From Raillietiella orientalis (taxonomy: Eukaryota), in assembly GCA_036172245.1 (NCBI GenBank), contig JAYWIR010000001.1:9424001-9488000 (forward strand): a DNA stretch of 64,000 nt. Reading direction: 5' to 3'. The first letter of the stretch is position 1, and every line of letters starts with the position of its first letter. The position numbers were made by a program, and so were the translations under genes. Shown here in pieces: positions 16,928 through 39,559 of this stretch. The notes under the pieces are model-generated. The model did no database searches, was not told where the DNA came from, and saw only the letters and a list, made by a program, of their open reading frames with translations.

Positions 16928-16949
16928 CTGTTTCACTGCTCTCCTTCCA

Positions 16950-17520
16950 GCTTTTTTCTTTTGTTTCGTTTTTTTTTTCGTTTGCCACGCAGTCAAAGAA
17001 CCGTTGGCCTTGCAGCTCACGAAGCTCTTCAGCACCGCCCACGCCACCCGAGGTTGCTTCTTAGCTCTTCAAGTGAGAAGTTGACCCCGGAGGGGGCACC
17101 CCATGAATCCAAAAAGCCTCTTAAGACAATAGTCCATCTCTATCACTCTTGGAAGGCACCTCTCCTTTTGGTTTTCTCCGAAGGAATCTCTCATCCATCT
17201 CAAGTACGTTCTTTTCTTTTCCGTAGGGACCCCTCGGAAAGGATCCCCTCCTGGAATTTCTTAAACGGAGGTCACCCGCAAGGGAACCGCTCCTTGATTG
17301 CCAGCCAGTCAGCGAGGGCATCCGCTTTCTGGCTGCTCCCACCGGTAGCGCACCCGAAAGGTCCAGCCAACGTCATCTTGCAGGCGAAACTCGAAACTGA
17401 CGACGCACCCCCCGCTCTCGGCGTCAATGTTTACCCGAGCGGGATTCGAACTCGCGACTCTTGCTAGTGCCACGAGCGGTGGACGCAGCCTCTCGGACGC
17501 GAACGAGGGCCACGCGGTGC
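16950..17520 (-). mobile_element. tRNA-head SINE copy (inside left arm)
   Basis: B-box-like GAGTTCGAATCCC on the minus strand (~17441-17453), A-rich tail at ~16951-16980, body similar to copies at 20030-20855 and 44350-45000. Confidence 0.65.
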
Positions 17521-17590
17521 AAATTTCAGAGGAAGCACTTTATTGCGAGAGGTTTTCCGGGAGGCTGCAAAACTTCTCCCACAGAGGTTC

Positions 17591-19385
17591 TCAGGTAGAG
17601 AAAGTCAGGGTCTTCTCTTTGTCGTTCGAGAGGTCAACTTTCACTTTGACCTGCCTCATCAGGTCAACTCCAAAGCCCCAGTTCGACTGTATCTCCTTTC
17701 TGAGTCCATGGGTGAAGAGCAGATAGCACCTGTCGCTTCCCGGGAAAGCCTGGAATGCCTCGGACGTAGGTCCTCCCTGCGCGTCGATTCGGGAACCGCT
17801 TCAAGAAGTGAAGAGAAGGAGGAAGTTCCCTCGGTCAGCCCTCAAAGAACGGAAGTTGCGGTCAGAGGGAAAGAGAGAGAGAGGCAACCGCTCCAGCGAG
17901 TACGAAATGTACCTGGAACGTGTAGCTGTAGACGTCGAAAAAGGCCTCCACGCCGCCGCCAACTTTGTACGTCACCTTCTTGTGTTTTTTCGGATCCCGG
18001 GATTGGCAGGACATCTGAGGGAAGCGGGCGTTAGTCTCCACGATCGTGAGAGAGGGTCGCCTACCGCGTAGACGCGGTTGAGTGGTGGCACGGGTTTCGC
18101 GGGGATGTGCTGCAGCAGCCAATCCAGGAACCTCTTGGGAACTTCCAGGAACGGCAGTCCGGCGTCGATGAAGGCTGCCTTTTGTTCACCCATCTCGAAT
18201 TCCGCGTCCCCGTAAGAAATTCTGAAAATGCAATCGCAAGGACCTCGAGGGACGTCCACCGCCTCTTTCAGCTTTCATCTGGAAGCGGAAGCGCTCCGTT
18301 TCGCAGTTCGACGAACTTCTTGCGTTAGACGAGATGCGCGCAAGGAAGAAAAAGAAATCCGCTGAGTTTCTCGCATACGGCGACTCGGGGATTCGGCAAC
18401 TGGCAGGGCACCGCGATGTTCCCCAACATGACGCTCGCATCAGGTCGGGTGGATGGCGACTGTTTCTTACCCTCCCAATTCGAACTCGAGGAGGTGCGGG
18501 TGACTCTTGCCCTCTCTGCTCAGCATCGGCTTCACCACGGTTTTCTCGCGTAACTTCAACGTGATCCTGTCGTTGGAGTCGCCGAACGTGATCTTCTCCT
18601 CGCCTCTGATTCGAAGAGAATGCTGCAGGTCTTCGGTTCCTGCCTCCCATCCCTTACCTTCTGAGGTCGAATACGAACTGGCTGCGGGCGTTCGCGCTTT
18701 CGAAGCGGTACGCGTCCATTCCCAGTAGTCCGTCACCTGCCAAGTACTCGTGGAGGTACGAAGAGTTGGTTTCCAACGTAAACAGCTCCACCTTCTCGTC
18801 CACCGTGAAGGAAACGGATTTGTCCAAGTTCTTCACCTGTGGAAGAATGCGCTCTCCAACTCGCGTCCCTCCTTCCCGTCCTCTTTACGCTGTAAGTGTC
18901 TTCGCCTTCCCTTATGCTGACCGACTTTCCAAAGTATACGGCGTTGCTCTGCTTCCCGTTGGAGTGCCAGGACGAAGAGTCCTCGGGCTTGAACTTCTGG
19001 TGGTCCTCTGCAGGGTCGCGCTTAGCCGACGACGAGCGCCGACCCTGCAGTCCACTTACTGCACCATTTGCTCTTGCATCGTTGATCAGGGATCCACAAA
19101 GAAGACACTGTGGTGTCCAGGATGACCTGGAAGTGCTGGCCCGGGGTCCCGACGCTGGCGAAGCAATAGAACTGGCCCTGGGGGAGCAGAGAGTAGCCAA
19201 AGAGCGCCCCCGGGATGGTGGGCATCTTACGCGTTGCCGGTCGTATCCTAGGCGAAGGACGTGCTGCGAGCTGGAAGTCTTGACCCGGGCGATCCTGAAG
19301 GAGAAACGAACCTGCAGCCGAGAGCTGAAACTCAAGGGAGGTCTTACCCGGAGAAGACCAGGAAGAATAGAAGCGCTCCGAACAT
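17591..19385 (-). CDS. Secreted pepsin-family (A1) aspartic protease homologue, divergent; open copy (9 exons, ~356 aa)
   Basis: Mirror image of 28171-29966 but with 6 A in exon 8, so the frame stays open. Spliced protein: signal peptide MFGALLFFLVFSG, QFYCFASVGTPGQHFQVILDTTVSSLWIPDQRCKSKWCKDHQKFKPEDSSSW, DGLLGM, KITFG, AAFIDAGLPFLEVP, YAMSC, RCYLLF..NWGFGVDLMRQVKVKVDLSND..LTFST. All 8 introns GT-AG and in phase. Confidence 0.88.
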
Positions 19386-19445
19386 CTTGAGGAGATCCCA
19401 GCGCGTTGGCTCTACAGCAGTAGTTGCTTCGGGTGTGGCTCGTTC

Positions 19446-19452
19446 TTTTATA
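19446..19452 (-). promoter_or_regulatory. TATA box of the left aspartic protease copy
   Basis: TATAAAA on the minus strand ~60 nt upstream of the ATG at 19385. Confidence 0.7.
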
Positions 19453-20029
19453 TAACGGCGGCACCAGAAGCGGCGCTTGGGGAAGGTTCGCCTTTGAAGG
19501 GTTCAATGCGGTCACACGGCAAGGTCGGCAGGCGTGTTCGCTGCACCTGTGCTGCTGCTGCTACCGCTCGCTTTGAGGTATCACGACGTTCGCTCCGTTC
19601 CGGGGTGCTCCCCTCCGAGGCGCGCGCGCGAGTCTGGAAGAATCTCACCGGCCTCCCGCGCCTGTGCAACGTTGCATCCGACCGGGAAACGACCGTCCGC
19701 TTCCTCGTCGCAGAGCTCTTTACCAAAGTCGCCGCTGCGCGCGGACGGCTGCCGCCCGGGTGCCCCGAAAATGCCTGCCTCCCGATGCTTCGACAGATGC
19801 CTGTCGGCGCTGCCCCTGAAGTGTCGCGTTCCACGCTCGCGCGCTCTCCGTGTCCAGGACCCAAGGTAGCAAAGTGGGGAACAGGTGCCATTTCCCTCCA
19901 CTCGGAATGCAGATGGCGTGTGTGGCCACGGGCAGGACGATTCCCAAGAGAAAAGTTTTGCCCTGTATCAGCCGAAGGACCCGTCTGGATGCTGGAGGTT
20001 GCGTCTTTGCGAGGCAGCCTTCGTGCCAC

Positions 20030-20855
20030 GCGCTGGCGGCCGTGCGGCTGCGGCCTCCGCGCCGCGTTGCCCCACCTAGCGTCGCGGCTTGGAATCTCGG
20101 CCGTGAAGGGGGATCTACCCTCCTGACAAATGGACGCGTCGTGAGTTTCGAGTTTTCCTTCGTAAGATGACGCAGTAAGCAGCGTCATCTTGGGGAGCTT
20201 CCTTGTAGAGATGCATCCTTCAACCTCCAGACGGTTCCCCCGCCTGAAACGGGACAAAATTTCCGTCTTGGGAATTCTTGCGCATACTCGAGTGTGGCAC
20301 TTCTGGAAGCCGTAAGCCCACGTTGAGTAACCGGGATTGGATGTCGACCCTCCGGGGTCCTTCCAGCAATCAAGGAGTCTTTCAGGGTTCCCTTCCGTTG
20401 GTGAGGATAGAGCTGGTTTATATCCACCTCGGGGAATTGCCCCACCACAGCGCAAGAAGTGCGCTGCTTCCTTCCGGCAGGGAATTCTACAGAAATCTGG
20501 AAGAGTCCCTCGAGCTTTCTCCTCAATGGAAGATAGGAGGAGCGGTTGCATTGTGGATTCTTCCCGGGTAAGAAACGAGGTGTCCACGTCTTCGGGGAAG
20601 CATCTCCCGAGACGACCAGGATGAGTGTTTTCTTCGGGGTTCTCTCCCAGTAGAAAGAGAGGAGTGGACTCCTTCCTCCGGTACCTTTCCTGGATTCATT
20701 GGGTTGTCCCCACGAGATTGCCCTTAAACTGGAAGGGTTACGCACACTCCCTCAAGGAATGTGAGCGGCGCGGATGAGCTTCGTAGGTCCACCGTAGCAT
20801 GGCGGGAGGTTCTTCAGTCCTCATTGAAAACCAAAAAGAAAAAAAAAAGAAAACA
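20030..20855 (+). mobile_element. tRNA-head SINE copy spanning the inner end of the left arm
   Basis: Decayed B box (GTCGCGGCTTGGAATCTC ~20081-20098), body sharing GACCCTCCGGGGTCCTTCCAGCA with the reverse complement of ~44785-44808, A-rich tail ~20827-20855. Confidence 0.65.
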
Positions 20856-22466
20856 GGAAAGCGACCGAGGTCGCTCCGGGAGGGCAGGTTCTTCCGGAAT
20901 TTGTCCACTGTTGAGGCCAGCGCTTGTTTTCCTCTATCAGCGGACGAACCGCGGACACCCGGTGTGCAGTGCAGTGTCCGCCGGCGCCCGGGATCTGGCG
21001 CCAATGGGCAGCGCAATACGGAATCCCGCATCTGCCGACGGTCCTCCAAAGCGCCCATGTGTTCGATCCTCCGGATCTGCATCCACACCGTTGCCGCGTG
21101 AGCGGAGCAGGTACCGGAAGACGACCAGGTGAAGAACGGAGTTCCCTCCTTAACCCCACCTCTCGATTCCCTCGCTTCCTGAATGATCCATCTTCAAAGA
21201 GGGCGCACGCGCACACAGAGTGACCCGGAGTCATCCCTTTCCCATCTTTCACGCTTCCCTCCTAGCGGACCGGCCATGTAATGCGGAGCTCCGTCCGCGT
21301 GGAGGCCGCTGGATAACCTCCCTCGGCATTCCCACGGGAGATGGGGGGTCTTCTGAGCCCCGCGACCCGGAAGGCGCTGGGACCTCTTGGGACTGCCTTC
21401 CGCTAGCTTGGCAGCACACGGCGCCGCGGGTTCAAGAATGCCCTCGGGCTGCTCGCGCACTCCCCACCCGCAGTGACGTGGATTCCCGGAAGCGCTCCTG
21501 CGTGATTCGCAGCTACGAGCCTTCGCAATCAGCGGGCGTTCGCACAGCTGCGTGCGGTCGAGTGGGGCCCTTCCTGATTTCGGGAGAGCGTCACCTGGGG
21601 AGAAGCCGGTGCCTCAAGGGCTCCCGTGACCTACATTCCTCGCAACACTGGTTTCCGGTGCCCCTGTTACTGGGTGTCTTGCCTGCCCTTGGACATTCGC
21701 TCTGGAAAAGCGAGCGTCCCGTTCGAAACCCCGAGGCAAAGGCTGCGACCACCGACAGGACGAGGCGAGCCGGTCACGTAGTGCTCCAGGCTTGCCATCG
21801 ACGCATGTGCCGTCTTCCGTGCAAACGCCCGCCGGTGCTCCTGTCTCTCTCGGTACGCAGAGTCCCGGCGTGCGCGCTCTCCCGTCCTGCGATCACCTGT
21901 TTTGCCGCGCAGTAGACGAACGGATGCCTCTCCTCTCCTCTTCTCGACCCCCTCCCCCATCCGAGGAAGCCGCATCGGCAAGGGACGCTTCACGCTGAGG
22001 TCGTCGCGCTGAAAACATAATTGCTCCCTCCTCCGTTCTTGCCCCAGCAACCGGCTCGCTGCTGCTCCGCGTGTCTTGCTTCCTCTTTCGTGGTCGAGCT
22101 CCTGGCTCGTTGCGCCCTGGCCGCCTGCCGGACTCCTCTCCGGGAGGCAGCCCTGTCGGTTCATCCCTGCTGCAGTCTCTGCCGGTCAAAAACCGCCATG
22201 CCCAACCCATGAGGTCACTTGCACCTGCCACCCCGGCACAGTCGCTCTTTGTCACCGCTGGTGTCTGGTCCATTTGCTGGGAAACCACGACGTGGCTCAT
22301 CGAATTGGATCCAGAGAATGCAGCTGCGGGAGACGGAAGCTGCTAAAATGAAGAAAGATCACAAGTCCGGGGTCACATATATTCAGTAGCTCGAACACCA
22401 AAACCCCGAAAAATCATAAAGATAAATATATATGTTTATTATATACATTCATATGATTAATATGAG

Positions 22467-25400
22467 ATGCAGGAAAACATCGTCAACCTGCGCTCCGTGA
22501 TTGAGAACGCGACGAGTGAAGACCAAAAAAAACAGGCAATCCAGCAGTCCAAGGACCTGCTGCAACGCCTGCGACAGGAGGTCACTACACACGAAGTGGC
22601 AATGCACCTCGAAGAACAGGTCTACGTCATCCTCACCCCCTTAGTCCCGCCAGACGAGGACCGGAAACAGGGGGAAGGAAAGGAGACGCCGGCGGAAACG
22701 CCAAACAAGACGAAGCGATGGAAGGGCAGGAAGTGGAGGGGAGCGCTACCAGCTGTCTCCTCGGGAGAGGATACTCCCGCCGAGGAGGAAGCCGCCATTT
22801 ATGAAATGCTCAACCAAACCCTGCGGTACAGGCGCTCCCAAACCAGGGCGCAAATGGCCCCCCAAAAGCGCAAGATTAAGTAAATTAGCCTAGCCGTTCC
22901 CTTTATGACGCAACACCTGACATCTTTGAATAAAGTCGGGCTCGCATCTTGGAACATTAATGGATGCACGAACCCGACGAGAAGGAAACACATGAAGTGG
23001 CTCCTGCGACAGGAAGCCATCTGCTGCCTGCAGGAAACTCACTTCATGACGCCCGAAGCATGCCAAGATCTTGAGGGAACTCCAATTCGACGTCCACATC
23101 AACCAGGGCTCGACTAACCGAAAAGGCGTGGTCATCCTCGTCAAGCAGACCCTCGCGCCTACCGTCTTGGAAGTTTTCCACGGATGGGAAGGCCGCGTCT
23201 CGGGCCTGAGGATGGCGTGGTCCGGAAGCGTTCACCTGTCCGTAATGAACGTGTACGGACCAATGTTTAACAAGAAAGCCTTTGCGACAGCGCTCGCAGA
23301 GTTAATCAAGAACAAGATCACCTCGAAAGACGTCATGATTGAATGCAGGCGACTTCAATGTCCGTCTGGACGGCTGTCGGCACGACGAGTCGGGTGCGTA
23401 CGGCGTCTACCGATGCATGATGGAGGAACTCTCCCTCCTTTGCACGGGAGCGAACGCGAAGCGCATCGACTACGTCCTGCACTCGGCAACTCTGGCGAAT
23501 AGGATGCAGGGGATCCGGGAACTCAACACCGGAATCTCGGACCATGCTCTGCTGAAATGGAGACTAGCATCCAGGAATCCCAGGAAAGAAAACGCTCCAC
23601 CCTGGGCGGCACTCATCTGCATGCCCGAGTGATACGAGCGTTTTCCACCGTACCAGCGCGTCGTGGAAACCATTCTAGCCACGACCAACATCTTGCGCGT
23701 GGACGACTGGGATATCCTGAAACACACCATGAACCTGTTCTCAAATATGCAGTACGGCGACCGGAACCTCTGCGAGGAAGCGTGCAGGGAAATGTACCAA
23801 CTGATCCCTCCCACTCTGAGTACTGGGAACAGTACCAGAGCCTCTTCCTCGAAAAAAGTGTCAAAAAGGATATCGCACGGCTGGAGAAGCGCAACCTGGC
23901 AACGGACATATTTCATGTCCGTTACCAGGATAAGGACTATAGAAATTCAGAGCAAGTGCTGCAAGCATTCCAACACCACAACTCCGAACTAATCAAGAAA
24001 GAGATTTTGGACCCGGGAGGTCAGGAACGGATTCTCCGTTGCGTGAAGAAACGCCTGGCCTCCCAAGAACTCGACGACCTGGAAAAGCAATTCACTGTCG
24101 AGGAGATCAAAGCGGCGTTCGACGAATTGCACAAGGATGTGGCTGCGGGCCCTGATAGCGTTCCCATCACGCACTATCAGAGGCACCTAACCCACTACCC
24201 GCGCCTACTCCGTCAGCTGCAGGAATGCATCGACCTGGAACAACGACTGCCCGTCTCCTTTCACCGAAGCAGGACGAGGCTGCTCCCCAAGAGCGGCGGG
24301 GACCTCTGCAACGTCACCCAATGGAGGCCCATATCCGTCCTGAATTCGGACGTGAAATGGATGGCGAAAATCTGAGCAAACAGGCTGCGCCAATGTATGA
24401 AGTCGGTGGTTTCCCCACACAAGCGTGTGCCGTACCAGGCATGTGGGATAGCCTGAAGTGCGCCCAAACCCTCCTGGGATACAGTTGTATCCTGGGCAAG
24501 GACTTGTGCTGAGCTTCACTGACATCGAGAAGACCTTCGACTCGGTAGACCTTCACGCCATGCTGCTGAAAGTCCTCGGAAAGGTAGACTTCCAGGGAAG
24601 ATTCGTGCAGCACGTGGCACATACCTTGGAAGAAGCCAATTTCTCGATCATCGTAAATGGGCTATCGTCGAGCAACATCAAGATGGAAAGAGGAGTCCGA
24701 CAGGGAGATGCCCTGAGCCCGATGCTCTTCGTACTATATATAGAGTCTATGAGTGCCTTTGTTAAACACGAGAGTCAGCTAAAGGGTATCGACCTGGGCG
24801 AAGAAGAACCCAAGATCACTCACCTGGCCTATGCTGACGACCTCCTGTTCGTCATGACTGATGAGCGGGACCAGGAGGCATTCCTGGACGTCGTGCGGGC
24901 CATGAAGTGCGGCCTCGGACTTGGAGTCAACCCCAACAAGTCCCATCTGCTCGCCGTGGGAATCCTGGACGTTACCATCCTCCACGCTCCACGCCCATGC
25001 TTCCAGATTGAGGACAACATCAAATACCTGGGGGTACGCATCGGCGATGAAACACCTGCCCTGTCGCAGCAATGGTCGACCATCTTGACCAAGCTGCGCG
25101 AAGAAGCCAGCCAATACACCAGAAGATCCTTCTCGCAGAAGGACAAGGCAAACCTCTGGAACGGGGTGATGGCGCCGAAGTTCCTCTTCACAGAGTCTTT
25201 TCTATCGTTTTCCCCGACGACGGCAAAGGACCTGGCCGCCATCCAGAGGAACCTTGTCTGGAGCGGGAAACGACCGAAGACAAAGTTGCAGTACCTGTGC
25301 CGCCCGCGGATGGAAGGAGGAATCAGCATGCGCAATGTCGCCACTGCCGTGAAACTCCAGGACCTCAAACACTTGGTCCGAATGGTCAGCGCATGGGACG

Positions 25401-26492
25401 AGTGGCCGTTTGCGTTTCACCGTGCCTTTGCAAGACTGGTGCACGGAACCGACGGCCTTTGTCTGCCCTGGTGCTCACCGCGGGCGGCTGGGACCAAGTT
25501 GACCCTACGTGGCCCCGAATCCAGCGTCTAGTATGGACCTTAAAACTGCGAGTGGTACCCAGAAGTAAGGAGATATGGAACAAGGAACTGACCAAGGTGA
25601 TCCCGCTGTTCATCAGCGTCCCTTGGGACACCGAAGCATGGATCACGAAGAACCGAAAGATCACTGTGGAAGCTACCGAGAGACTGGCGGACAGCGTGGT
25701 TATGCACGCCCGCCGAGTCCTAGTATACAAGCGCCAGCTCGAGGGGAGGATAATCCACAAGATCCGGGAGCTTTGGCAGGATCAAGGCTCCCAATGGTCC
25801 AGGGTGAACCTCCTGAGTAACAATCCTCTTAGTTCCCAAGATACAACACCGTCCAGGGCGATGCAGAAGATCAAGTCCAGGTCAGGATCAAGGCAATCCC
25901 GCAGTGGATGCACAGGCAATCGGACGGTCCTATGGAGATCCTCGTTGCCGCCGGACATTCAGAACTGCCTCCTGATGTTTTATCACGGAGGCATACTGTG
26001 TGGCACGAGGTTTCAACACTGGACCGGAAATCCCGACGACTACCAGTGCCCAGGGTGTGGGTCAGTCGAAGATGACCTACACATCTACACCTGTCGCAAT
26101 CGCACCCTCTTCAGGAATTGGAAAACCATAAAGAGGGCGGAGCGATGGAAGAAATGTCGACGCTCGAGATCCTGAGAGGACTCTTCGAAGGCGAAGACGG
26201 AGTACCCCGCTACAATCCCACCTTGAGAGTGATCGTGGCCTCCTTCATGAGAAGTATTCTCATACGAAGGATAACCTTATCCCATGGTGAAGTGTGCAGT
26301 GCCCTGGATGTTCTATATGGAATCCTGAAAAGGGAAAGCAATATCCGAGCATATGGGAGAGTCCCGTCGTGGGTTTTCCTATATTGCCTTAGGATTGTGC
26401 AGTGTGGAGCCAGGACGGTGTAGTGATGTACCCGCTTGGACCGCAACCCTAATTGTGTTTTGTTTTGTTTTGTATGATTGTAGTTAAATAAA
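22467..26492 (+). mobile_element. L1/Tx1-like non-LTR retrotransposon, 5'-truncated and pseudogenised (ORF1 tail plus APE-RT ORF2)
   Basis: ORF1-like tail 22467-22883. ORF2 from 22905: ASWNING, CLQETH, MNVYGP, AGDFN, RIDYV, SDH (APE endonuclease); AAGPD, LLPKSG..WRPISVLNSDVK, DIEKTFDSV, GVRQGDALSPMLF, AYADD, KYLGV (RT); CPGC..EDDLHIYTC; stop at 26422; AATAAA 26487-26492. Several frameshifts and in-frame stops. Confidence 0.92.
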
Positions 26493-26599
26493 TTCACCCC
26501 ACCGCAAGTCGGACTGGGGAAAGACGGGTCAGAGTTCACCTGCCTCCTCAGCTACGAGTTGTTGCTCGGACGTCGCTTGCAAGGCGCGAAGGGTTCGTC

Positions 26600-26900
26600 G
26601 CCTGGCGTTGCTGTCCTCCAAGCACTGAGGTCCCTGCGGCCACTCCAGAAGCGTAGGGATCGAGTGGTGGGGTGCAGGAGGGAACTCCACACTCCCTGCG
26701 GTCGTCTTCTGGAAACTATGCCGTTCACGCCGTGAAGATATGGATGCGGATTCGGGGGGTCGAACACGAGGACGGTTTGGGGGACCATCGGCGGATGCGG
26801 ATCGTATTGGTGCACATCGGTCACCAGGTACTGGAAGTGGGCACCCTCTGCATTGCACATTCGGTGCCCGTGGTCTTCGAGCTCCTGGTCTTTTAAACGG
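26600..26900 (+). mobile_element. Older L1/Tx1-like APE endonuclease remnant (diverged inverted homologue at ~20950-21170)
   Basis: THSLRSSSGNYAVHAVKIWMRIRGVEHEDGLGDH resembles T....SRIDY......I......SDH. The reverse complement shares segments such as CCGCATC.GCCGA.GGTCC and GTGTTCGA.CC.CCG with 21025-21075. Confidence 0.5.
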
Positions 26901-28103
26901 ACTCTGGATCTGCCTTCGTCGCACAGGGCTTTTCTGAGGAGGTCCTCTGTCGTTCTGTGAATTGCTGTTGGAACGGGGCAAACAAAAAGCAAGGGGCAAA
27001 GGAGAAGGGCTGCCAGTGAGTTCCACACCGCGGCCCGTTCCGACAAGTAGAGCATGCCGTCCCCAAACAGGCAGAACACCATCTCTACTTTTAGGAGACT
27101 GTCGGACCAGACTTCTGCTACTCAGAAGTCCCCCAACGAAACTCCAAAGCACTTGATGTAACCACCGTTGAGGATAAGCTCCTTGATTGCTGGAAGGACC
27201 CCGGAGGGTCGACATCCAATCCCGGTTACTCAACGTGGGCTTACGGCTTCCAGAAGTGCCACACTCGAGTATGCGCAAGAATTCCCAAGACGGAAATTTT
27301 GTCCCGTTTCAGGCGGGGGAACCGTCTGGAGGTTGAAGGATGCATCTCTACAAGGAAGCTCCCCAAGATGACGCTGCTTACTGCGTCATCTTACGAAGGA
27401 AAACTCGAAACTCACGACGCGTCCATTTGTCAGGAGGGTAGATCCCCCTTCACGGCCGAGATTCCAAGCCGCGACGCTAGGTGGGGCAACGCGGCGCGGA
27501 GGCCGCAGCCGCACGGCCGCCAGCGCGTGGCACGAAGGCTGCCTCGCAAAGACGCAACCTCCAGCATCCAGACGGGTCCTTCGGCTGATACAGGGCAAAA
27601 CTTTTCTCTTGGGAATCGTCCTGCCCGTGGCCACACACGCCATCTGCATTCCGAGTGGAGGGAAATGGCACCTGTTCCCCACTTTGCTACCTTGGGTCCT
27701 GGACACGGAGAGCGCGCGAGCGTGGAACGCGACACTTCAGGGGCAGCGCCGACAGGCATCTGTCGAAGCATCGGGAGGCAGGCATTTTCGGGGCACCCGG
27801 GCGGCAGCCGTCCGCGCGCAGCGGCGACTTTGGTAAAGAGCTCTGCGACGAGGAAGCGGACGGTCGTTTCCCGGTCGGATGCAACGTTGCACAGGCGCGG
27901 GAGGCCGGTGAGATTCTTCCAGACTCGCGCGCGCGCCTCGGAGGGGAGCACCCCGGAACGGAGCGAACGTCGTGATACCTCAAAGCGAGCGGTAGCAGCA
28001 GCAGCACAGGTGCAGCGAACACGCCTGCCGACCTTGCCGTGTGACCGCATTGAACCCTTCAAAGGCGAACCTTCCCCAAGCGCCGCTTCTGGTGCCGCCG
28101 TTA

Positions 28104-28110
28104 TATAAAA
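28104..28110 (+). promoter_or_regulatory. TATA box of the right aspartic protease copy
   Basis: TATAAAA ~60 nt upstream of the ATG at 28171; matching AATAAA at 30013-30018, downstream of the stop at 29966. Confidence 0.7.
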
Positions 28111-28170
28111 GAACGAGCCACACCCGAAGCAACTACTGCTGTAGAGCCAACGCGCTGGGATCTCCTCAAG

Positions 28171-29966
28171 ATGTTCGGAGCGCTTCTATTCTTCCTGGTC
28201 TTCTCCGGGTAAGACCTCCCTTGAGTTTCAGCTCTCGGCTGCAGGTTCGTTTCTCCTTCAGGATCGCCCGGGTCAAGACTTCCAGCTCGCAGCACGTCCT
28301 TCGCCTAGGATACGACCGGCAACGCGTAAGATGCCCACCATCCCGGGGGCGCTCTTTGGCTACTCTCTGCTCCCCCAGGGCCAGTTCTATTGCTTCGCCA
28401 GCGTCGGGACCCCGGGCCAGCACTTCCAGGTCATCCTGGACACCACAGTGTCTTCTTTGTGGATCCCTGATCAACGATGCAAGAGCAAATGGTGCAGTAA
28501 GTGGACTGCAGGGTCGGCGCTCGTCGTCGGCTAAGCGCGACCCTGCAGAGGACCACCAGAAGTTCAAGCCCGAGGACTCTTCGTCCTGGCACTCCAACGG
28601 GAAGCAGAGCAACGCCGTATACTTTGGAAAGTCGGTCAGCATAAGGGAAGGCGAAGACACTTACAGCGTAAAGAGGACGGGAAGGAGGGACGCGAGTTGG
28701 AGAGCGCATTCTTCCACAGGTGAAGAACTTGGACAAATCCGTTTCCTTCACGGTGGACGAGAAGGTGGAGCTGTTTACGTTGGAAACCAACTCTTCGTAC
28801 CTCCACGAGTACTTGGCAGGTGACGGACTACTGGGAATGGACGCGTACCGCTTCGAAAGCGCGAACGCCCGCAGCCAGTTCGTATTCGACCTCAGAAGGT
28901 AAGGGATGGGAGGCAGGAACCGAAGACCTGCAGCATTCTCTTCGAATCAGAGGCGAGGAGAAGATCACGTTCGGCGACTCCAACGACAGGATCACGTTGA
29001 AGTTACGCGAGAAAACCGTGGTGAAGCCGATGCTGAGCAGAGAGGGCAAGAGTCACCCGCACCTCCTCGAGTTCGAATTGGGAGGGTAAGAAACAGTCGC
29101 CATCCACCCGACCTGATGCGAGCGTCATGTTGGGGAACATCGCGGTGCCCTGCCAGTTGCCGAATCCCCGAGTCGCCGTATGCGAGAAACTCAGCGGATT
29201 TCTTTTTCTTCCTTGCGCGCATCTCGTCTAACGCAAGAAGTTCGTCGAACTGCGAAACGGAGCGCTTCCGCTTCCAGATGAAAGCTGAAAGAGGCGGTGG
29301 ACGTCCCTCGAGGTCCTTGCGATTGCATTTTCAGAATTTCTTACGGGGACGCGGAATTCGAGATGGGTGAACAAAAGGCAGCCTTCATCGACGCCGGACT
29401 GCCGTTCCTGGAAGTTCCCAAGAAGTTCCTGGATTGGCTGCTGCAGCACATCCCCGCGAAACCCGTGCCACCACTCAACCGCGTCTACGCGGTAGGCGAC
29501 CCTCTCTCACGATCGTGGAGACTAACGCCTGCTTCCCTCAGATGTCCTGCCAATCCCGGGATCCGAAAAAAACACAAGAAGGTGACGTACAAAGTTGGCG
29601 GCGGCGTGGAGGCCTTTTTCGACGTCTACAGCTACACGTTCCAGGTACATTTCGTACTCGCTGGAGCGGTTGCCTCTCTCTCTCTTTCCCTCTGACCGCA
29701 ACTTCCGTTCTTTGAGGGCTGACCGAGGGAACTTCCTCCTTCTCTTCACTTCTTGAAGCGGTTCCCGAATCGACGCGCAGGGAGGACCTACGTCCGAGGC
29801 ATTCCAGGCTTTCCCGGGAAGCGACAGGTGCTATCTGCTCTTCACCCATGGACTCAGAAAGGAGATACAGTCGAACTGGGGCTTTGGAGTTGACCTGATG
29901 AGGCAGGTCAAAGTGAAAGTTGACCTCTCGAACGACAAAGAGAAGACCCTGACTTTCTCTACCTGA
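28171..29966 (+). pseudogene. Second copy of the pepsin-family aspartic protease homologue with a +1 frameshift in exon 8 (pseudogene or homopolymer error)
   Basis: Exons 28171-28208, 28262-28325, 28379-28496, 28549-28667, 28720-28898, 28951-29085, 29335-29491, 29542-29644, 29808-29966. Exon 8 is 103 nt (A7 at 29566-29572) against 102 nt (A6) in the left copy. One R/K difference (EVPKKF vs EVPKRF). Confidence 0.82.
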
Positions 29967-30035
29967 GAACCTCTGTGGGAGAAGTTTTGCAGCCTCCCGG
30001 AAAACCTCTCGCAATAAAGTGCTTCCTCTGAAATT

Positions 30036-30606
30036 TGCACCGCGTGGCCCTCGTTCGCGTCCGAGAGGCTGCGTCCACCGCTCGTGGCACTAGCAAGAGT
30101 CGCGAGTTCGAATCCCGCTCGGGTAAACATTGACGCCGAGAGCGGGGGTGCGTCGTCAGTTTCGAGTTTCGCCTGCAAGATGACGTTGGCTGGACCTTTC
30201 GGGTGCGCTACCGGTGGGAGCAGCCAGAAAGCGGATGCCCTCGCTGACTGGCTGGCAATCAAGGAGCGGTTCCCTTGCGGGTGACCTCCGTTTAAGAAAT
30301 TCCAGGAGGGGATCCTTTCCGAGGGGTCCCTACGGAAAAGAAAAGAACGTACTTGAGATGGATGAGAGATTCCTTCGGAGAAAACCAAAAGGAGAGGTGC
30401 CTTCCAAGAGTGATAGAGATGGACTACTGTCTTAAGAGGCTTTTTGGATTCATGGGGTGCCCCCTCCGGGGTCAACTTCTCACTTGAAGAGCTAAGAAGC
30501 AACCTCGGGTGGCGTGGGCGGTGCTGAAGAGCTTCGTGAGCTGCAAGGCCAACGGTTCTTTGACTGCGTGGCAAACGAAAAAAAAAACGAAACAAAAGAA
30601 AAAAGC
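30036..30606 (+). mobile_element. tRNA-head SINE copy (inside right arm)
   Basis: GAGTTCGAATCCC at ~30104-30116 and A-rich tail ~30578-30604; mirror of 16950-17520. Confidence 0.65.
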
Positions 30607-31199
30607 TGGAAGGAGAGCAGAGAAACAGAAGCCCTCATCTCCGACATCGACGCTCTTCGTGCAAGGTATCCTGCAAAGAGCTGTTTCTTGAATTTGTCTA
30701 AAAATTTACGCACTACTTAACGACACCACCAAAGGCTGGTGACCGACAAAGTTAGGTGACTCGATGTGCTGTGGTATCTGCACAATGGACCACACGTTGT
30801 TGTTATCCAGTCTGGCAAAGATGTGAGCTGCCTTGATCAACGAATCGAATATGGCCATGGCTCCAAGCAAGCGAGACAAGAAAGCGTGGTTGTTGCCTTT
30901 GATAAGCAATGTGGTCATCTGTTTGACCAAAAGAGCAGCTGACCAGAATAATCTGAAAATCCTCAGGCGAATCGTGCAAGAACTCGCCACGAATGCAGAT
31001 CGCAAATCCGAGTTATCAATTCGAACAGAACATTCTGTAAAAGGAATTTCTTGGCGTGGAGGCTGTCTCTCTTCGTGTTCTTATGAAAGAATTTGGAGTT
31101 CTTTCCCTGTTTACAATATTCGAGAAAGGGTTCTACAGATAGAAAAAGGCTGCAACCTATTTATGTAAAATTTTCCAAGTTCATCTGAATTTCCTTTGA

Positions 31200-33260
31200 A
31201 AGGGGATTGTTGAAATTTTTCCTTTGAAGTGTATTCTCTTTTGAATACATTTCTTGAAATCACATGGGAGACAATTGGTATTTCTTAGGCTCTATCTGAT
31301 GGACATCAAACAAATGCAAGCTTTCTGCATGAGGCGTTCTTGAAATCCATGATTCCACATATCCAGTGCTATGAACCAATGCTGATCTGGTTCGTTACTG
31401 CAAAGTAACTCATGTGAAATGTGTGGCTGTTCATGTAACTTGTTTGAATGTCATACTTTGACATTCCACACCTTGAGATAACTTTCCTTGGTATTAATTT
31501 TAACTCATCATACAAGCTTACGAGACAGAGCATTAAATCACAGTGGGATGTATGAAAACATCCAATTTCAAGTTTTTAGTAGAGGAAGTTCGGGCAATTA
31601 ATTTAAAAATCTACAAGTTCCGTTTTTAAATGATGAATTTCTGTTCGATGCATCCAGTTCTTACTCTAAAGAAGGGTTTGAACACAAAAGAATCACCTCA
31701 CCAACTAATGCCATTGATGAGAAAGTGGTATACATCATGAAAAATAGAAGGGAGAAAGTCTGTCTCACAAAGAGGCTTGCAATCAGTGGAATTCACTCTT
31801 TGTGGTGAGAAATGTATTTACAAAAAACAGATCTTGTAGTTTTACACATTGCAGCTTTTATAGAAAATAATAAATCAGAGCAAATCACAAACTTATTCCA
31901 GATTACATCCATGCCCCAGTTCCAAGATACCAGTTACATGAAAAGAAATGTTTACAACCTCTATGCTGCTTTCCCAGAAATACGAGTACATTCTTAAAGT
32001 ATCAAAACAGTTTCTTTCATTGCAGACATGCATGAGAGATCTGAAAAATTTACAATGCAGTTGACTTTTAGTGTTATTGACAAACTCAATAAAATGATTT
32101 ACTTTCTACTTTCATAATTATCATGATTTACAAAATAAAATGGTGAACAGAGTGCAGGTGAAAAATGAAAAACAGAAGGGCCCAAGGGACAAATTATTTA
32201 CTTTGCATAGGAACAGCTATTGCTTGAGAGAACGGTTTCCTGCAACTAGATTGCAAAATTGAAATCACTTAATGACAGCACACATAGTTGGGTGGTGAGG
32301 AAGAGTTTCAGTATTCCTTGAATAATATATTTCTTCGTATGTAATAAGAAAAATATCTTAACCTTTAATGCACAATTTTCTGGTCAAAAACTTGGTCTGA
32401 AAGTACTTTTCTCATCAGCTGACAACTTTTCAAGTTCTATAATATATTTTCACTTTTCCTGATCTTGCCTCAAAGCAAATTCCAACCTCGGTAAAACTAG
32501 TACCAAAACCTTCATGCAAAACAAGAACTCTGCTCTGAAAAATTTAGCCTGGATCTCCAAGAAGAGAAGTATCACACCTTCAATCCAATTACTGTTCATA
32601 CAAAATCCTACAGTAAAATGTTGAAGATTTTAGAGGCTCTTCACAGGTCTCAAGAGAATGGTTGCTAGCTGTGGATGTCTCTAGAATGAAGCAACCCTGC
32701 CTTTCATCTAGATGCTTTGAAATTCCCGCAAGTTGAAACATGGCACACCATGGGAGCACATAGACACTGGGACTAAAGATGCTGAAGTCAAATTTTGTTT
32801 TCCAATGCTACCTACAAGATGTTCACAGGAGCATGACTAAATGCTGTGAACATCAAGTCAATGTTAGAAGTTGCATCTCCTACATCATTCAGGAAGCCAG
32901 GAAGACCCAGCATCAAGTACATCTTGATATACTCAATCCATACAACACCTACTCATTGGAGATCTCTCTGTGCACACTTTCCTGTACAAATTGCCAAGTT
33001 TTCCAAGCTTATTGATATTCAACATTACCTTTAGGATCAAAGCTGACAACATAACTGCCATGCCATAGTACCATAGGTATGTTTGATTACCCTATGTACT
33101 GCAAATGCATTAGGTTGAGACCCATCTGTGCGTTTCATGTATAAGCTAACGTATGCCAGGAAAAGGGGCACATGGCACTGAAATACAATCCAAATTATGA
33201 TTTAGCTGTGTTCATTAACAAATCCTCAAACGGGGAGGTATCACAAAAATCCCAATTAGG
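31200..33260. mobile_element. Possible decayed hAT transposase fragments in a CpG-depleted block
   Basis: AFPEIR..ER-like dimerisation-domain remnant on + (~31960-32060); AEFLFCMKVLVLVL..Q-like segment on - (~32460-32560). Weak motif evidence only. Confidence 0.25.
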
Positions 33261-36200
33261 TGTCAACTGAGAAACTTTCCAATCACTGTAACCAAATTTT
33301 GCCCCCCGCAAGTAATTCTCTGTGCTATGGCACCATTTGTGCTTCCGGTTTTCATGATCCCCACACCGAGCTTGCTTGAAACTGCTGAGAGAAAAAATGG
33401 AGGAGCAGTGCTGTAAGAATTTGCTACCAAGGATAGTTTTTCAACGTCAGCCGTCGGAATCCTCCCCGACGAATGAGGAGGCCAAACAAACTTTTTCCAC
33501 TGACTTGGCACGTCACAAATCAAGAATTCAGAAGAGATGCGAAGTTCACATTGAAAGGTACTTTCCAACACATGCAGAATATTTATTACACACCGTGCAG
33601 TTTAGTCTGTCGCACCCCCAAAAATTCCACCATCGAATAAGTGCAATCAATCTGCGAAAACCTTTGCAAATTCTTATCAAAAATGATGCCTGGTGTTCCC
33701 ATCTTCCTTGCAGTGTCGTTACCTGTATGCTGCCCTTTCTCTCTCTCTCTCGTGTCCCTCTTTGTTTTGTTTCGTTTTCGTTTTTTTTTTTTTTTTAAAA
33801 AAAAAATTAATGCAACAATCCGCGTCTGCAGTTACTTCCGCTCATACAGGCAGGCTGCAAACATTAAAATTTACTTCCTTTCCTTGCCTAAACAAGAATG
33901 CTGTGAGCTGTCTTTCGTGAACAACGATCACAGAAAAACACCACTGCCTCCGGATATGAATGGCACCTTCCATCATTCAGACGAAGCATCCCGGGGATAA
34001 TCTTGGAATTCCAGTCAAGTATTGGCTGAAACGAAAATTTTCATTTCCTAAATTGTGGTGTCGCTTCTCGAGACGCCTCTGAAGTCACGTTGATGCCACT
34101 TTGCCTTACTACGCCAGCACATAGCCATTGGCAAAACGTAGCTAACCTTGGCACTGGCCGAATCCCCTGACACGGCGCAGGTGACCAAGGCTGCGGACGC
34201 GCTCGCGTGGATGGGTGGACGCCCAGGCGCTTCCGCTGGCGCCTCGGAATCGATGGACGCATCCACCACCAAGTGCAAGCTGCCTTTCGTGTACTTTGGT
34301 CGTAGCCGAAACGCCGACCAAAGCGCGAAGCAGCCATGCAGACCACACCAACCACCGCGGCGGCACCAATTTATCAAAGAGGTTTCTGTGCCGTGTGGAC
34401 GCATTGCTAATCTCGGCGTGTACGGATCAGGAGTTGCTTGAGATGATGGGTAGCCGGTGTGTTTGTTGACAACTTGCATCAGCGAGAATTGTAATTGGCT
34501 TCCTCGAAATTCTTAAAGAATGCTTTAAAGAGCCTAAGGTTACGGCTTAAGGAACAGGATACTCATCCGAAAACTTTCCCCAAGTTCGGCAATAGTATGC
34601 ATAAATAGGGTTTGTTTATCATTCACACCAAGATTAGATATTCCAGTCGGATTCATAGGGATATTTTCAAAGCCTTTTCTAAATCAAGAGCGAAGGAGCG
34701 CTCGATGAGTCCACATTTCAACTGAGGTGCGTTTCAAATGTGACTTTGTATGGTTCACTAAGAGAAAAAAAAAGAAGAAAAGCAGTGAACAGAATAGGTT
34801 GATTGACAAAAAGTATCCCTGGGTGCAAATCCCGCCTCGAATTTTCTCATTCTTTTTAGAAGTTGACATTATTTCAAGGTCTCGCAAACGATTATCGTCA
34901 GTTGCTTACGGGGGGAAGGATTTCTCTAAAATCGAGGAGCTTAAAAATTCATTGAATCTCCGGCTTTCTAAGGAAAAGCACCTTGCGTATTTCCTCTTGC
35001 GACATTGGTGGTATAATGGTGCTTGCATCAACCAACAGGTCGAGGCGATCGCGTTGCGCACCCGATCTTTTCTTTTGTCCCACCATTTGAATAGGCACCG
35101 GAATTTTTCGTCTCATTGTCTTTTCACCTTACTCTAAGATATTTTGCATGATATTGTTTGGGATGCAAGATTTGTTCAGATGACGCTGTTTTCGATCGCC
35201 CTGCTTTCTCCTGTTTCTTCACGTCAAACGCGAGCAGGGATTCAGATTTCACGCGCTATCTGGTGACATCTCAGAAGCAACAAGAACGATGTTGAAAATT
35301 CGTGCTTACTCCTGCTGGTAAGGACGCTCCCCAACATTTCTGAGCTTTCCTTTCTCCTCCCTTCTGCAACTTTCTATCTGGGCAGGGGAAAAGCAACCGG
35401 AAGGGAGGCGTGTGAGGTAAACCTGTTCTTCACGTGGCGTACGTTTGTTCTGTTGTTAAGTTTTCCCATCTACGTGAAGTTAACACACGCAAGCAAGAAG
35501 CATTGCAGATGCAAATTGACTTTTTGGAAAAAGCTCAAATAAAGCTGCCGAAGTGGATCGTTTCAGTTAGGACTCATTTAGGAAAATTTGGTTCAGATGA
35601 TACCAATCATCGTCCATTATGGCATTGTTCCCCTTTCCCAGCATCTCTTCGGCGATACTCTGCATCTGAAATTTTTTTTCCTCCTGCTCCACCGAGGTTC
35701 CAGGTACATTTTTTGTACACTCTGGTGCCTATTATCCAATCTTGGGCTGCATTTGTAGGAAATTGGAATTTCTCCTTTGAATCTTTTCACGTAAGTTATT
35801 CATGACCCGCCTACAATACCATCCGCTACAGATCTTTGGTTCCTGATTGTAGCAAAGGCTTTTCATGACTGCTCTTCGCATCACTGCTGGGATGAGAGAT
35901 CGGATAGAAATTTCCACTTGGAAGCGGCAAGATCTTCGCCCGCACAGAGGGAAAGCCTTGCACGAGGCATTATTGATTGGATCTTTGCAGATGTTTCATC
36001 AGCTGGGATCTTCAACCAAAGATGTACTCTTTGGGTCTTCTCGCCACACACAGCTCTTCCTTTTGTGGGCGGTCTCGAGCTGAATTCCATTTCGCTAGCC
36101 ACGAACCCTGACTGCCTCTGAAAGCCCGAAGCGGGGATTCATCGAATTCGGAAGAAAAAGAACCGCGGTCCCACTTGGAGGACACCTGGAGGAAGGGAAA

Positions 36201-36399
36201 GATCGGTGTTGCAGTGAAGAAGAAGTTGCAGTTGCAGAAGAAGGACGGCAAGAAGAAGGTAAGCAGATTTCGATGCACTGATTAAACGAAAAGCACACGA
36301 ACTGAACTCTTCTCGTTCCCTGAGGCAATATGGAGTGACCTCTAGGGACGTTCTTCCAAGCTCAGCAAAAGCTGCCCATCCCCGTTTACTTCCCAGGCT

Positions 36400-37100
36400 T
36401 CGCATCCTCTTGACAGGTATCCAGGCCACTGCTTCCAGTGCATCTCACGGCGACAGCGGATACACGAGACAATCTTCAGACGCCTCGTCTTCCAGGATGC
36501 AGCCGATGGACTCCCTCATTCGTTGCGGAGATCTTAGCTTCCCGGAGAAGCAACTGGCAAAGACAGGCACCCTGAGTTTTACAAGCTCTTCTGGGAAAGC
36601 TATAGGGCAACACCGTGGTCTTCCTCCCCCTCCGCCCCCGCTTCCCTCCCCCTCTGGCAGCATCGGAAACCCCCCTTCGCCGTCTCCAAGCGGACAAGAG
36701 ACATCTGGCAGCACCAGATCGGGCTGCAGAATGGAGTTCGCCCCGGGGGCAAGTTGTTCCTCGAGGCCATCCATCCCGCAGCCTTGGCTGCAGCGCCTTT
36801 TATCTCCTTTGCAACAGCATCGTCGCACCCAGCTGTGTACGAGGAAGACGGAAGGAAGCTCGTACGGCGTCACTTTGACCCCGATCAAGAAGGAACAGCA
36901 GGGCGGAGGACTCGCGGGTTGTGGTTTCGGGAAGGAGAAGCTGCGGAGGGCGACAGCGGAAGCGTAAGGAAAGAGCTTTGCATTACCAGGTCTCCTCAGG
37001 AGGCGGAACCTCCAGGACTGCCGCAGAAACCTCTGGGAAGGCGGTGAGGCGCGAAGGAGGGGAAGGATGCGGTATGCATCCATCCCGGGGAAGGGTTGAG
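36400..37100 (+). mobile_element. Decayed L1/Tx1-like post-RT fragment
   Basis: NGVRP..KLFLEAIHP and TLTPIKKEQQGGGLAG parallel WNGVMAPKFLFTESF and LCRPRMEGGIS in the element at 22467-26492. Confidence 0.45.
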
Positions 37101-39559
37101 AGTGGGAGACAAACCGGGAAGCACGGGGGGGCTGGAGAGAGGCGTCACGCTGAGCGCGGGACTTCGAGGAAGGCCGCCTGCGTGTAGCGGAAGTTTCCCG
37201 TCCGTGAGATTTCGGCTGCGTCCGTTCGGAAGGGGTGCTTCCCCGAGGACATCCGAACATCCGGGTTTCCGGAATCCGACCCACAGACCGGACAGCCGCC
37301 GTTCTTCGAGCGTCCTAGGACGGTGGGCAGCAGCGCGCTCACCGGAAAAACGTCTCCTTTTCGGCGGACCGAGCTCTCTTGGGCGCCAAGCCTGACCGCA
37401 TGCTTCCACTTTCCCCGTAGGACAGGGCCTACCACTACGAATAGCACCGCCGGTGGCGAGGACGGGAACCTTCCGCGTTCCCCACCGATAGTCCGCCTGC
37501 TGCTGCAGAGAGCTCGTCCGGGATGCCGGCGCCTGGGGTGTCACCGATGCCACTTCTGAGCGGTTCCCCCCTCCGGACCCCCAGGACGCGCCTGCGACTC
37601 CAGGGATGCTTCTGCAGCTGCTAGGGGGGTAGGGGGAGGGGAACGTTTGTACAGACCCTGGCTCGCCCGACTGCCGACTGCCCCACGTCCATTGTTCCCT
37701 GGATCAGGAGATCAGGTAGGGAGTGTCTTCTCTCACGAAGGAACAGGAAGAGGGAAGGGGGCCGAGAGGCAAAGAGGGCAGTGTCCAGAACCTCTGGACA
37801 CGGCCTTCTGTCGTTTACGCACCGTCCCCGACGACTTGCTCCTTGCGGTTGCCAGCAGCAGTCACTCGCCTTCCGGAGCGCCTGACCACCCTTCTTGCCT
37901 CTTGCATGCCCCCTTCCCCACAATGCCACTCTCCCCTTCCGTGGTAGCGCCGGGGACCGACTCTTCATCCTCTCTGCTTCCGTTCTTCCTTGGTTTCCTC
38001 ACTCGTTTCGGGATGTCAGGCGGGGAGTTAAGCGCGGAGGCTGCATAGAAGTTGGTTATCGGCGTCTTCCGACAGTCGCAGCTGTCGGACTTGGGCGCTG
38101 CCGATGCCTTCGCGTCCCGGTTTTCCCCAAAGATGGAAATGAAGAGCAGAGAGTTTGCCCGAGCGCATCCGGTCTTCAAACAGACATCGGAAGGACCGAG
38201 AGCCCTTTTCATACCCGCGGTTGATCCCGACGCACCGATCCAGGGAGGAGAGCGAGTGAGAGACTCACCCTTCGACTCCAGCACCTCGGCTCGCTTTCAT
38301 CGTTCTGCCCATCCGTTCGCACCGCTTCGCTTTCCACCGCTTCTTCGCCGTGTTCTCGAGAAGAGGCAGTGACGCGAAACGCCACCCTCCGGTGGCGGTG
38401 GAACTTCTCACCTGCGAAGCTTCAAAAAAGAAAAAAAGCAGACTGCTAAAGTTCGCGGAGACCCAAAACACTCGAGGAATGGTCCATGGAAATCAAGAAC
38501 CTCCTACGCTGGTGCTGCAAACGAAAACTGTCGGGGCAACTGAAAGCAAGGATTTGCCCTTTTACTGGGAACCACACTCTTTGAGCGGATCTTCGCCGCA
38601 TGCGCGAGAAAAGTTTGCTGCAAACTCTTCGTTTCGGATGAGCAGGCGCCATTTTCCTTCCCCCTTCAATGGAAGGGAAAATGGCGTCGCCTCCGCCTTC
38701 ACGGTTGCCAACAATGAAACGCGCAATGAAACAACCGATGCGTTCCTCGCGCCTGCTTGGAAAACTGTCCCGCCGACGGGAACACGCTCTAAGAACTTCA
38801 TTTCCGAAGCCCAGCTGCGTAGAATTCCAAACCATTCCGACAATCCAGAAAACCAATTCTCCTCCTTCGTTTGTCTTACAAGAAAACAATTCGCCATCAT
38901 CAGCTGATTGATGCTGCTTTGAAAAGAAAAAAAAAAAAAAAGCCTCATATCGCAGCGCTCCAACATCTCCCAGAGGAGGCGGAATTCCGACGAAACAGTG
39001 ATATCATCGTTTTGTCCGCTGTTTTTCCGTTTTGCAAACTTCCACCAGGAGAGCAAAATTCGAAAAGCAGAAGAGATGCGCCTCTGACTGTATGAGGAAC
39101 AGGAGCAGCTCGCGGTTCCATCGCTTCGCCGCCGAGCAGAGCTTTGTGAAATCGAAAGATTTCCCCCGTTCGATTTCTTTCTTTCTTTTTTCCCGGATGC
39201 CTGTTTGCTCTGTGAGCTTGGCGGAGACGCAAGTGCGAAGAATGCAAACAGCTTGTTAGTCACGATTTTGCAGCACGCAAGGAAATGAGGAAGGAGACCT
39301 TCGTCACCGGGACAAAGGCTGCTTCTTTCCAGAACAATGGCGCCTCAGCGCTCCCGTGAGTGGGAGCGGATGAGCAGCTGAACCACGTCGCCATGTGCAC
39401 GACGTCCTTCCGCCCTGCAGCGTTACCAGCGGGTCTTGGCGGAGAGATCCGGGCTTCCAGCTCCCGACTCGCTCGACTCCGGATTTACGACTTCCCTGCC
39501 GCGTCGGTTGCCTCCGGGATTTCAAGGTTGCGCGCGTTTTCCCGAGCACTCTCGGATTC

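Follow-up and report, generated by a model that had tools for sequence, protein, structure and literature searches.

We analysed a 64,000-nucleotide stretch of the Raillietiella orientalis genome (assembly GCA_036172245.1, 210 Mb in 491 contigs), which corresponds to C1:9424001-9488000, where C1 is contig JAYWIR010000001.1, and is referred to below as the window. It holds two inverted copies of a gene for a predicted pepsin-fold protein, one in each arm of a palindrome, together with repeats resembling short interspersed nuclear elements (SINEs), a fragment (Y) of a repeat resembling a long interspersed nuclear element (LINE), a decayed inverted pair (Z1/Z2) and an L1-like element in the spacer (Table 1). 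A third copy of part of the locus, T3, lies elsewhere on C1. As argued below, the arms probably form an old inverted pair that gene conversion has kept alike.

Self-alignment of the window by BLAST, a check that the original prediction had called for, returned a single long inverted match, 16928-20377 against 30628-27179, with 3,451 columns, 99.83% identity, 4 mismatches and 2 gaps. The remaining 6 matches of at least 60 columns are repeats at 72-78%. The two 3,450-bp arms with about six differences, first noticed by eye, are borne out by these 4 substitutions and 2 one-base indels. Three of the substitutions are internal and all of them transitions, one at a CpG (18132/29424, 18026/29530 and 17129/30427), while the fourth (16935/30621) lies 7 nt from the outer end; both indels fall in homopolymers (17990/29566 and 17413/30144). 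The inverted arms, more than 99% identical and joined in cis by the spacer, are confirmed as real in the assembly. The spacer has the predicted size of 6.8 kb, but it is not unique, since its non-L1 part recurs near C1:8.10 Mb.

Table 1. Features of the palindrome and its surroundings, in window positions (position 1 is the first base of the window).
Feature	Position	Strand	Remark
Left arm	16928..20377	-	3,450 bp; T3 does not share the outer junction 16927/16928
Right arm	27179..30628	+	3,450 bp; outer junction common to T3
Spacer	20378..27178		6,801 bp; non-L1 portion recurs in T3 at 95-97%
Left gene copy	17591..19385	-	9 coding exons; intact 356-amino-acid open reading frame (ORF); pepsin (A1) fold; hydrophobic N-terminus; motifs DTTV and DAGL
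Right gene copy	28171..29966	+	9 exons; frameshift in exon 8, A run at about 29566
TATA box, left copy	19447..19454	-	read from sequence
TATA box, right copy	28102..28109	+	read from sequence
AATAAA, left copy	17539..17544	-	read from sequence
AATAAA, right copy	30013..30018	+	read from sequence
Outer SINE-like repeat, left arm	16928..17532	-	arm ends within the A-rich tail region
Outer SINE-like repeat, right arm	30026..30628	+	
Shared outer-SINE segment	30257..30433	+	177 bp, both arms; candidate left-to-right conversion tract
Inner SINE-like repeat	20023..20910	+	uninterrupted across the left inner junction; 3' end approximate
5' part of inner SINE-like repeat	27179..27533	-	cut at the right arm's inner end; identical to the left copy
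Z1	20948..21185	+	half of a 72% inverted pair; candidate stranded inner part of the left arm
Z2	26641..26874	-	partner of Z1; ends 12 nt before Y
Y	26887..27175	-	289-bp internal fragment of a dispersed LINE-like repeat, ~13% decayed
L1-like non-LTR (long terminal repeat) retroelement	22463..26523	+	5'-truncated, disabled; T3 has 1.45 kb of other DNA instead
Third copy T3	20552..39984		duplicated inverted at C1:8093329-8107539; 95-97% identical, 14 kb

The gene pair and its predicted product

Both arms carry the nine-exon gene with GT-AG introns throughout, and the two genes face outward. Promoter, introns and exons all lie within the 99.8% arms, in agreement with the DNA-level inverted duplication proposed at the outset. 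A whole outward transcription unit had also been assigned to each arm; TATA box, nine exons and AATAAA are indeed present in both, but only the left ORF is intact. In exon 8 of the right copy there is one additional A. Because T3 has the left arm's length at this site, the extra A may be a new mutation or a sequencing error. With it, the right copy reads in one open frame from exon 7 through intron 7 into exon 8 (29282-29695), and retaining the 50-nt intron 7 would restore the reading frame, which is probably a coincidence.

Exon 3 matched the Pfam family Asp (E 1.4e-7) as well as 66 solved pepsin-family sequences in the PDB. The protein is colinear with nine full-length pepsin-like references at 15-24% identity. 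Against a profile of these nine, the N-lobe reaches E 8e-23, and the C-lobe is weak but colinear; an atlas lead for the C-lobe, at 0.89, lies under the reliable range. Homology to PF00026, the pepsin A1 fold, thereby extends over both lobes. Active pepsin A1 enzymes carry two DTG(S/T) motifs, according to the excerpted text of PMC12730222. The arm gene does not have them: both catalytic aspartates are retained, and both DTG motifs are changed. The family copies that were read have DTT, DST or DSM as the first motif in all cases and DTG, DSG or DAG as the second. The tyrosine aligned to flap Tyr75 is kept, and the glycine that follows it is replaced by Phe or Leu.

The hydrophobic N-terminus suggests a putative signal peptide. 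Taken with the altered motifs, it makes it quite likely that the product is an inactive or atypical secreted pepsin-fold protease. Inactive pepsin-fold proteins that are secreted and have changed catalytic motifs are known from ruminants as the pregnancy-associated glycoproteins. Our guess is that the protein belongs to a glandular or reproductive secretion, where it would bind a ligand or a protein in the way suggested for Bla g 2-like proteins; that the second gene copy serves dosage is likewise a guess. Positive selection relative to T3 was considered and rejected, with a dN of 0.038 and a dS of 0.072, a ratio not above 1.

Junctions, the third copy and markers of age

The label SINE rests on a tRNA-like head seen by eye; ARAGORN found 0 genes, and the folding of a part of the head is unremarkable (z -0.9). 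All 22 aligned copies of the SINE family continue over the left inner junction, where their mean identity to the spacer side is 66%, against 39% at the right junction. This upholds the observation that the inner SINE is whole at the left and truncated at the right. T3, located 1.34 Mb away, contains the spacer, Z2, the gene and the right flank in the order seen today, with the gene running directly into the right flank and with breakpoints that lie 174 bp from one end of the spacer and 376 bp from the other. The native junctions are the right arm's outer one, because T3 continues from the gene into the right flank, and the left arm's inner one, because the SINE is continuous there. The new junctions are then the outer-left and the inner-right, on opposite arms. 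The claim that the right arm is the derived copy was built on the SINE, which makes the left inner junction native; as T3 makes the right outer junction native, that claim finds no support as it was worded.

New junctions at the outer end of one copy and the inner end of the other are the pattern of a staggered break. The arrangement fits a staggered-break inversion, an inverted copy followed by a flip of the spacer, or an old palindrome that lost a piece inside its right arm. The left flank is single-copy, copies of the Y family run on into other sequence, and the only overlap with the reversed spacer end is a 6-bp palindromic one. A left flank continuing the Y or Z sequences found no support. 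Over 5 kb, the two outer flanks showed no older homology at E 0.05. A SINE terminal motif 41 nt past the left arm end (P ~0.005, noticed post hoc) was left unused, given its wrong anchor distance and a conflicting reading of the same bases.

Several side observations concern these junctions and T3. An identical 9-mer is present at the left outer junction (16917-16925) and at the Z2/Y junction (26878-26886); with 4 plus-strand occurrences in the window, chance is possible. At 34995-36778, the window has 1.8 kb that is absent from T3 at a clean junction, which is likely an insertion. T3 and the right half of the window together form a very wide inverted pair, in which segment divergence of 1.25-4.4% may reflect mutual exchange.

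Four markers point to an old structure. Fragment Y is flanked by a 7-bp direct repeat (26880-26886 and 27177-27183), the right copy of which overlaps the arm start. Scored against 11 other copies (14 were fetched, of which 3 were excluded for being incomplete or containing an insertion), Y has 24 private changes at 186 scored sites, spread evenly over the codon positions (7/60, 9/73 and 8/53), and its best relative is 80% identical. The 2,245 arm bases adjoining Y are identical between the arms.

The Z1/Z2 pair aligns over 239 columns at 71.5%, with a local score of 248 against at most 89 in 100 shuffles, and stands in mirror register once the SINE half and Y are set aside. In the genome searches, for which the best 40 candidates were scored, this sequence was limited to the window and T3 (4/4 candidates). 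Its 28% divergence agrees with the 13% per lineage of Y.

Comparison with T3 provides another clock. Arm and T3 differ at 115 of 2,663 sites (4.3%, with the SINE segment 30257-30433 excluded), against 4 differences in ~3,450 (0.1%) from arm to arm. Outside the arm, 205 of 9,691 sites differ from T3 (2.1%, Fisher p 2e-9), and in the GC-rich parts 151 of 5,370 (2.8%, p 5e-4). Arms as old as even the 2.1% divergence would be expected to carry ~72 substitutions, of which 4 are observed. In mouse X palindromes, too, arm divergence exceeds that of the flanks, as reported in the available part of 10.1101/800185. Finally, the outer-SINE segment 30257-30433 is shared by both arms, and the T3 version ranks only 19th among 35 compared sequences, no closer than unrelated family copies. 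No close donor of this segment was found for the T3 version (best 40 of 1,518) or for the arm (best 40 of 2,379). The left arm would be the simplest donor to the right one.

Y, Z1/Z2, T3 and the shared SINE segment thus appear to agree on an old age, each with an alternative reading. A "recent" duplication, as originally stated, is not supported, given the ~13% decay of Y, the 72% identity of Z1/Z2, the order in T3 and the SINE segment.

The spacer element encodes a reverse-transcriptase domain (Pfam RVT_1, E 4e-19). It was predicted to be dead, and 9 frameshifting indels and 2 stops relative to an intact relative confirm this. Compared with longer copies it begins inside the first ORF, it ends at the family's 3' end, and no target-site duplication was found. 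The arm ends lie 2.1 kb and 0.65 kb away from it, and the T3 spacer is without it; the element is an incidental passenger. An insertion after T3 was copied was considered and set aside, since with 3.1% private second-position changes and 9 frameshifts the element may be older than the T3 split.

The gene family and other inverted repeats in the assembly

Two exon searches located 10 loci of the family in the genome. Exons were projected for 9 of them, giving 6 intact ORFs with near-equal exon lengths and 3 with one-base indels; the tenth, on contig C25, is interrupted by an in-frame stop. Identity of the arm copy is 41% to the copy on contig C17 and 91% to that in T3. Seven of the 10 loci lie within C1 8.1-11.7 Mb, 4 of those in two palindromes. 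The family seems lineage-specific, as no close relative outside the Raillietiella genome was found in the protein searches: against longer proteins, none of 946 candidates scored with the exon 7-8 frame, which is weak evidence, and the exon 2-3 frame gave 120 hits among 50% representatives, all distant, at 30-66% identity over short stretches. The 60 listed of the 66 PDB matches to exon 3 did not include Bla g 2 by name, and the family looks to have been derived independently. We found no publication on this pseudo-pepsin family or locus in a partial coverage of the literature, main texts only.

Elsewhere, within the 70 kb of C25:740000-810000, a family member lies together with a pepsin-like gene that is more diverged and with a pepsin gene of conventional appearance; this cluster may be the source of the family. 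C184:11791-22775 matches C17:15001-32734 at 99.7% upstream and 97.6% over the gene region, and looks like an alternative haplotype or a recent duplicate.

A second palindrome at C1:10897729-10936075 has arms of 18,079 bp at 99.4%, a 2.2-kb spacer and outward-facing paralogs. Its left gene copy is intact, its right copy is broken in the assembly, and the arm differences cluster near the gene. Over 17 consecutive sites (277 bp), each of its arms matches a different outside copy, a mosaic that may reflect conversion or polishing cross-talk. A further copy, at C1:11465955-11483831, joins an inverted 11-kb duplicate (99%) of this palindrome's right flank to an oppositely oriented gene copy, and carries a perfect 504-bp inverted repeat.

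Large inverted repeats also occur apart from the family. At C106:70001-107962, inverted arms of at least 8.3 kb at 99.6% enclose a 21-kb spacer and contain C-terminal exons of a different divergent pepsin-like gene. At C24:1259-50000, a contig start, inverted arms of 18.2 kb and 3.9 kb (~99%) flank a 1.5-kb spacer; this repeat may be real or an artefact, and neither exon search found a family gene on it. These two and the second palindrome were chosen from hints, not by random sampling, and no inverted repeat of at least 300 bp at 90% was found in an unselected 100 kb of C2 or in 100 kb of C1 flanks. At C69:65355-108479 and C10:4232337-4244642 there are shorter inverted pairs, 0.4-1.5 kb long and 96-99% identical. 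Large inverted repeats are therefore not rare in the assembly, and a special tie between the pseudo-pepsin family and palindromes is only suggestive. A survey of parthenogenetic animals reports, in the excerpts of PMC7953838, 0-19 palindromes per genome and warns of misassembly.

The neighbours in the window are ordinary: a V-ATPase proteolipid subunit (2218-2928), a weak HIND-motif (SART1-like) exon (12665-13045), a serpin (54165-55719) and a BTB zinc-finger gene (57437-59064), which is of the tramtrack type with best matches in arthropods.

Origin of the palindrome and comparison with known systems

Near-identical arms beside old markers are probably best explained by an old inverted gene pair whose arms have become alike through mutual gene conversion. 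Conversion, raised in the original prediction merely as a possibility, is thereby favoured. The duplication would be of ancient date, produced by an inversion in which one break was staggered or by inverted copying with a later flip of the spacer. Subsequently, the inner SINE of the right arm would have lost its 3' half and fragment Y would have been added, and this non-matching block would have cut off the inner 240 bp (Z1/Z2) from conversion, leaving them to decay to 72%. Outside the block, conversion, whether repeated or recent, would have made the two arms uniform through promoter, exons, introns and SINE pieces. Under the steady-state relation c = 2u/d, as given in the accessible text of 10.1101/800185, a d near 0.001 would place conversion at ~2,000 times the mutation rate per site, and a single recent long conversion tract would yield the same picture as repeated conversion. 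The mosaic tract in the second palindrome also speaks for conversion, among the paralogs. Conversion of a palindromic pair is a known process; the cargo gene family is new.

Several points weigh against this reading. A close donor of Y could have been missed among the best 40 candidates or lie unassembled. Dating T3 before or after the palindrome makes no difference to the number of junctions it needs, three in either case. Because its divergence is patchy in the spacer as well (dispersion p 0.0005; arm p 0.001) and varies from 1.25 to 3.6% among flank segments, T3 is a rough clock, and it may itself have exchanged sequence. The Z1/Z2 register and the 7-bp repeat (chance estimated at ~1e-3) were noticed post hoc. 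The mosaic tracts of the second palindrome could stem from reads mis-mapped in polishing. The L1-like element, absent from T3, appears to have about double the decay that the T3 split predicts. There is no arm-specific GC-bias signal, and GC-biased conversion was rejected as a candidate (56 versus 38 in the arm, 100 versus 78 outside, with spacers as GC-rich as arms). Lastly, a single genome is available, and membership among conversion-kept pairs rests on internal markers rather than on paralogs being closer than orthologs; with T3 standing in for an ortholog, the figures are 0.1% between the arms and 4.3% from arm to T3.

Possible but rather unlikely is a young inverted duplication, in which one recent event, a spacer inversion with a 3.45-kb staggered break or a SINE-guided long template switch, would make the identity of the arms a sign of youth with little or no conversion. 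An inversion with a single staggered break would leave just this pattern of new junctions on opposite arms, and the available part of PMC1885836 describes duplications of up to ~1.9 kb at one breakpoint in 12 of the inversions discussed. Both arm ends lie within one SINE family with short near-matches at both junctions, and the family copy at C1:11.48 Mb is a duplicate with an internal inversion, as T3 could be. A young event, however, must break exactly at the edge of Y's direct repeat, leaves the Z1/Z2 register and the position of the T3 breakpoints near both spacer ends to chance, and has to account separately for the SINE segment that the arms share but T3 does not, and for the raised divergence between arm and T3.

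An assembly or amplification artefact, with two chimeric junctions or a haplotype misjoin turning a single-copy locus into a palindrome, strikes us as very unlikely. Just two unsupported junctions would suffice. Amplification chimeras are inverted and use microhomology. The ~714 kb examined hold 4 inverted repeats with arms above 3 kb at 99% or more, one of them at a contig start, and the one-base indels in 3 of the 9 projected family copies suggest residual error in repeats. Against this, the gene is tied to the spacer at the left by SINE continuity and at the right by the order in T3, two independent genomic records. Moreover, transitions account for all three internal substitutions, one of which is at a CpG, the flanks are free of further inverted repeats for 60 kb and 40 kb beyond the window, as is the unselected 100 kb of C2, and the spacers differ among the cases (1.5-21 kb).

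Least credible is the proposal that the arms are the long terminal inverted repeats of a gene-carrying composite mobile unit of foldback or Mutator type, or that the locus makes long hairpin RNA. Long near-perfect inverted arms and a loose 8/10 match of the bases just outside the arm ends would suit a mobile unit. The genome-wide arm search suggested by the original prediction, however, returned one other long copy, T3, which lacks the L1, and no second arm-spacer-arm unit. The right flank is native, and the arm ends lie inside ordinary SINE copies. No transposase family was found among the 18 window ORFs or exons scanned (a subset of ORFs). A composite or foldback transposon would be expected to show further units, a transposase and a target-site duplication, and these were not found. 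As to hairpin RNA, outward genes with their own poly(A) signals would give mRNAs that are not complementary, and Rfam returned 2 matches, both below the gathering score.

Returning to the old pair kept alike by conversion, a wider and doubtful extension is that C1 8.1-11.7 Mb forms an ampliconic, possibly sex-linked or non-recombining domain, whose palindromes have long held and co-evolved secreted pseudo-pepsins. If so, the decayed inner pair would be a fossil stratum dating when part of the arm left conversion, and the domain would parallel the mammalian X and Y palindromes that hold testis genes. The locus carries its own clocks, namely the old filler Y, the stranded 72% inner pair and T3, and it makes testable whether an indel in one arm shifts the conversion boundary. 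It is also a caution that 99.8% identity is no proof of recent duplication. Its cargo is a set of about ten divergent pepsin-fold genes with altered catalytic motifs.

Among known systems, the cockroach protein Bla g 2 resembles the arm gene in its secreted-type A1 fold and changed catalytic motifs, and occurs in male gland secretion (PMC7492603 and PMC9541408, in the parts available); the likeness seen is in fold and motifs. Staggered-break inversions likewise leave one new junction on each side of the inverted segment, but their duplicates, in the excerpts of PMC1885836, have a mean identity of ~88%, span at most ~1.9 kb and mostly decay, whereas the arms here preserve an entire gene at 99.8%. 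Mammalian X and Y palindromes share arm identity above 99% by conversion, multi-kb tracts and occasional inversions, and in mouse X palindromes the arms also outpace the flanks in divergence from an outgroup copy. As described in the available text of 10.1101/800185 and PMC3723533, however, their arms exceed 10 kb, are sex-linked and contain testis-expressed genes, while the arms here measure 3.45 kb and show no GC bias; the paralogous second palindrome, with arms of 18.1 kb, is of the larger size.

Close parallels are also found in Drosophila. Hsp70Aa/Ab, Hsp70Ba/Bb and Amy-p/Amy-d are linked mirror-image arthropod pairs homogenised by ectopic gene conversion, although homogenisation of Amy-p/Amy-d is confined to the coding region, in the excerpts of PMC3924832, whereas here it would include promoter, introns and SINE remnants over 3.45 kb. 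AttA2a/AttA2b of Drosophila subobscura, following the accessible sections of PMC7584159, is an inverted duplicate of a small secreted-protein gene with a short spacer, an old pair in concerted evolution with spacer reversal by arm recombination. For that pair, comparison across species proves concerted evolution, and the inversion of the spacer is polymorphic; the present case is drawn from one assembly, has a spacer of 6.8 kb and carries a pepsin-fold gene. Conversion-kept gene palindromes are thus known from mammalian sex chromosomes and a few Drosophila pairs, and this locus would add another arthropod lineage.

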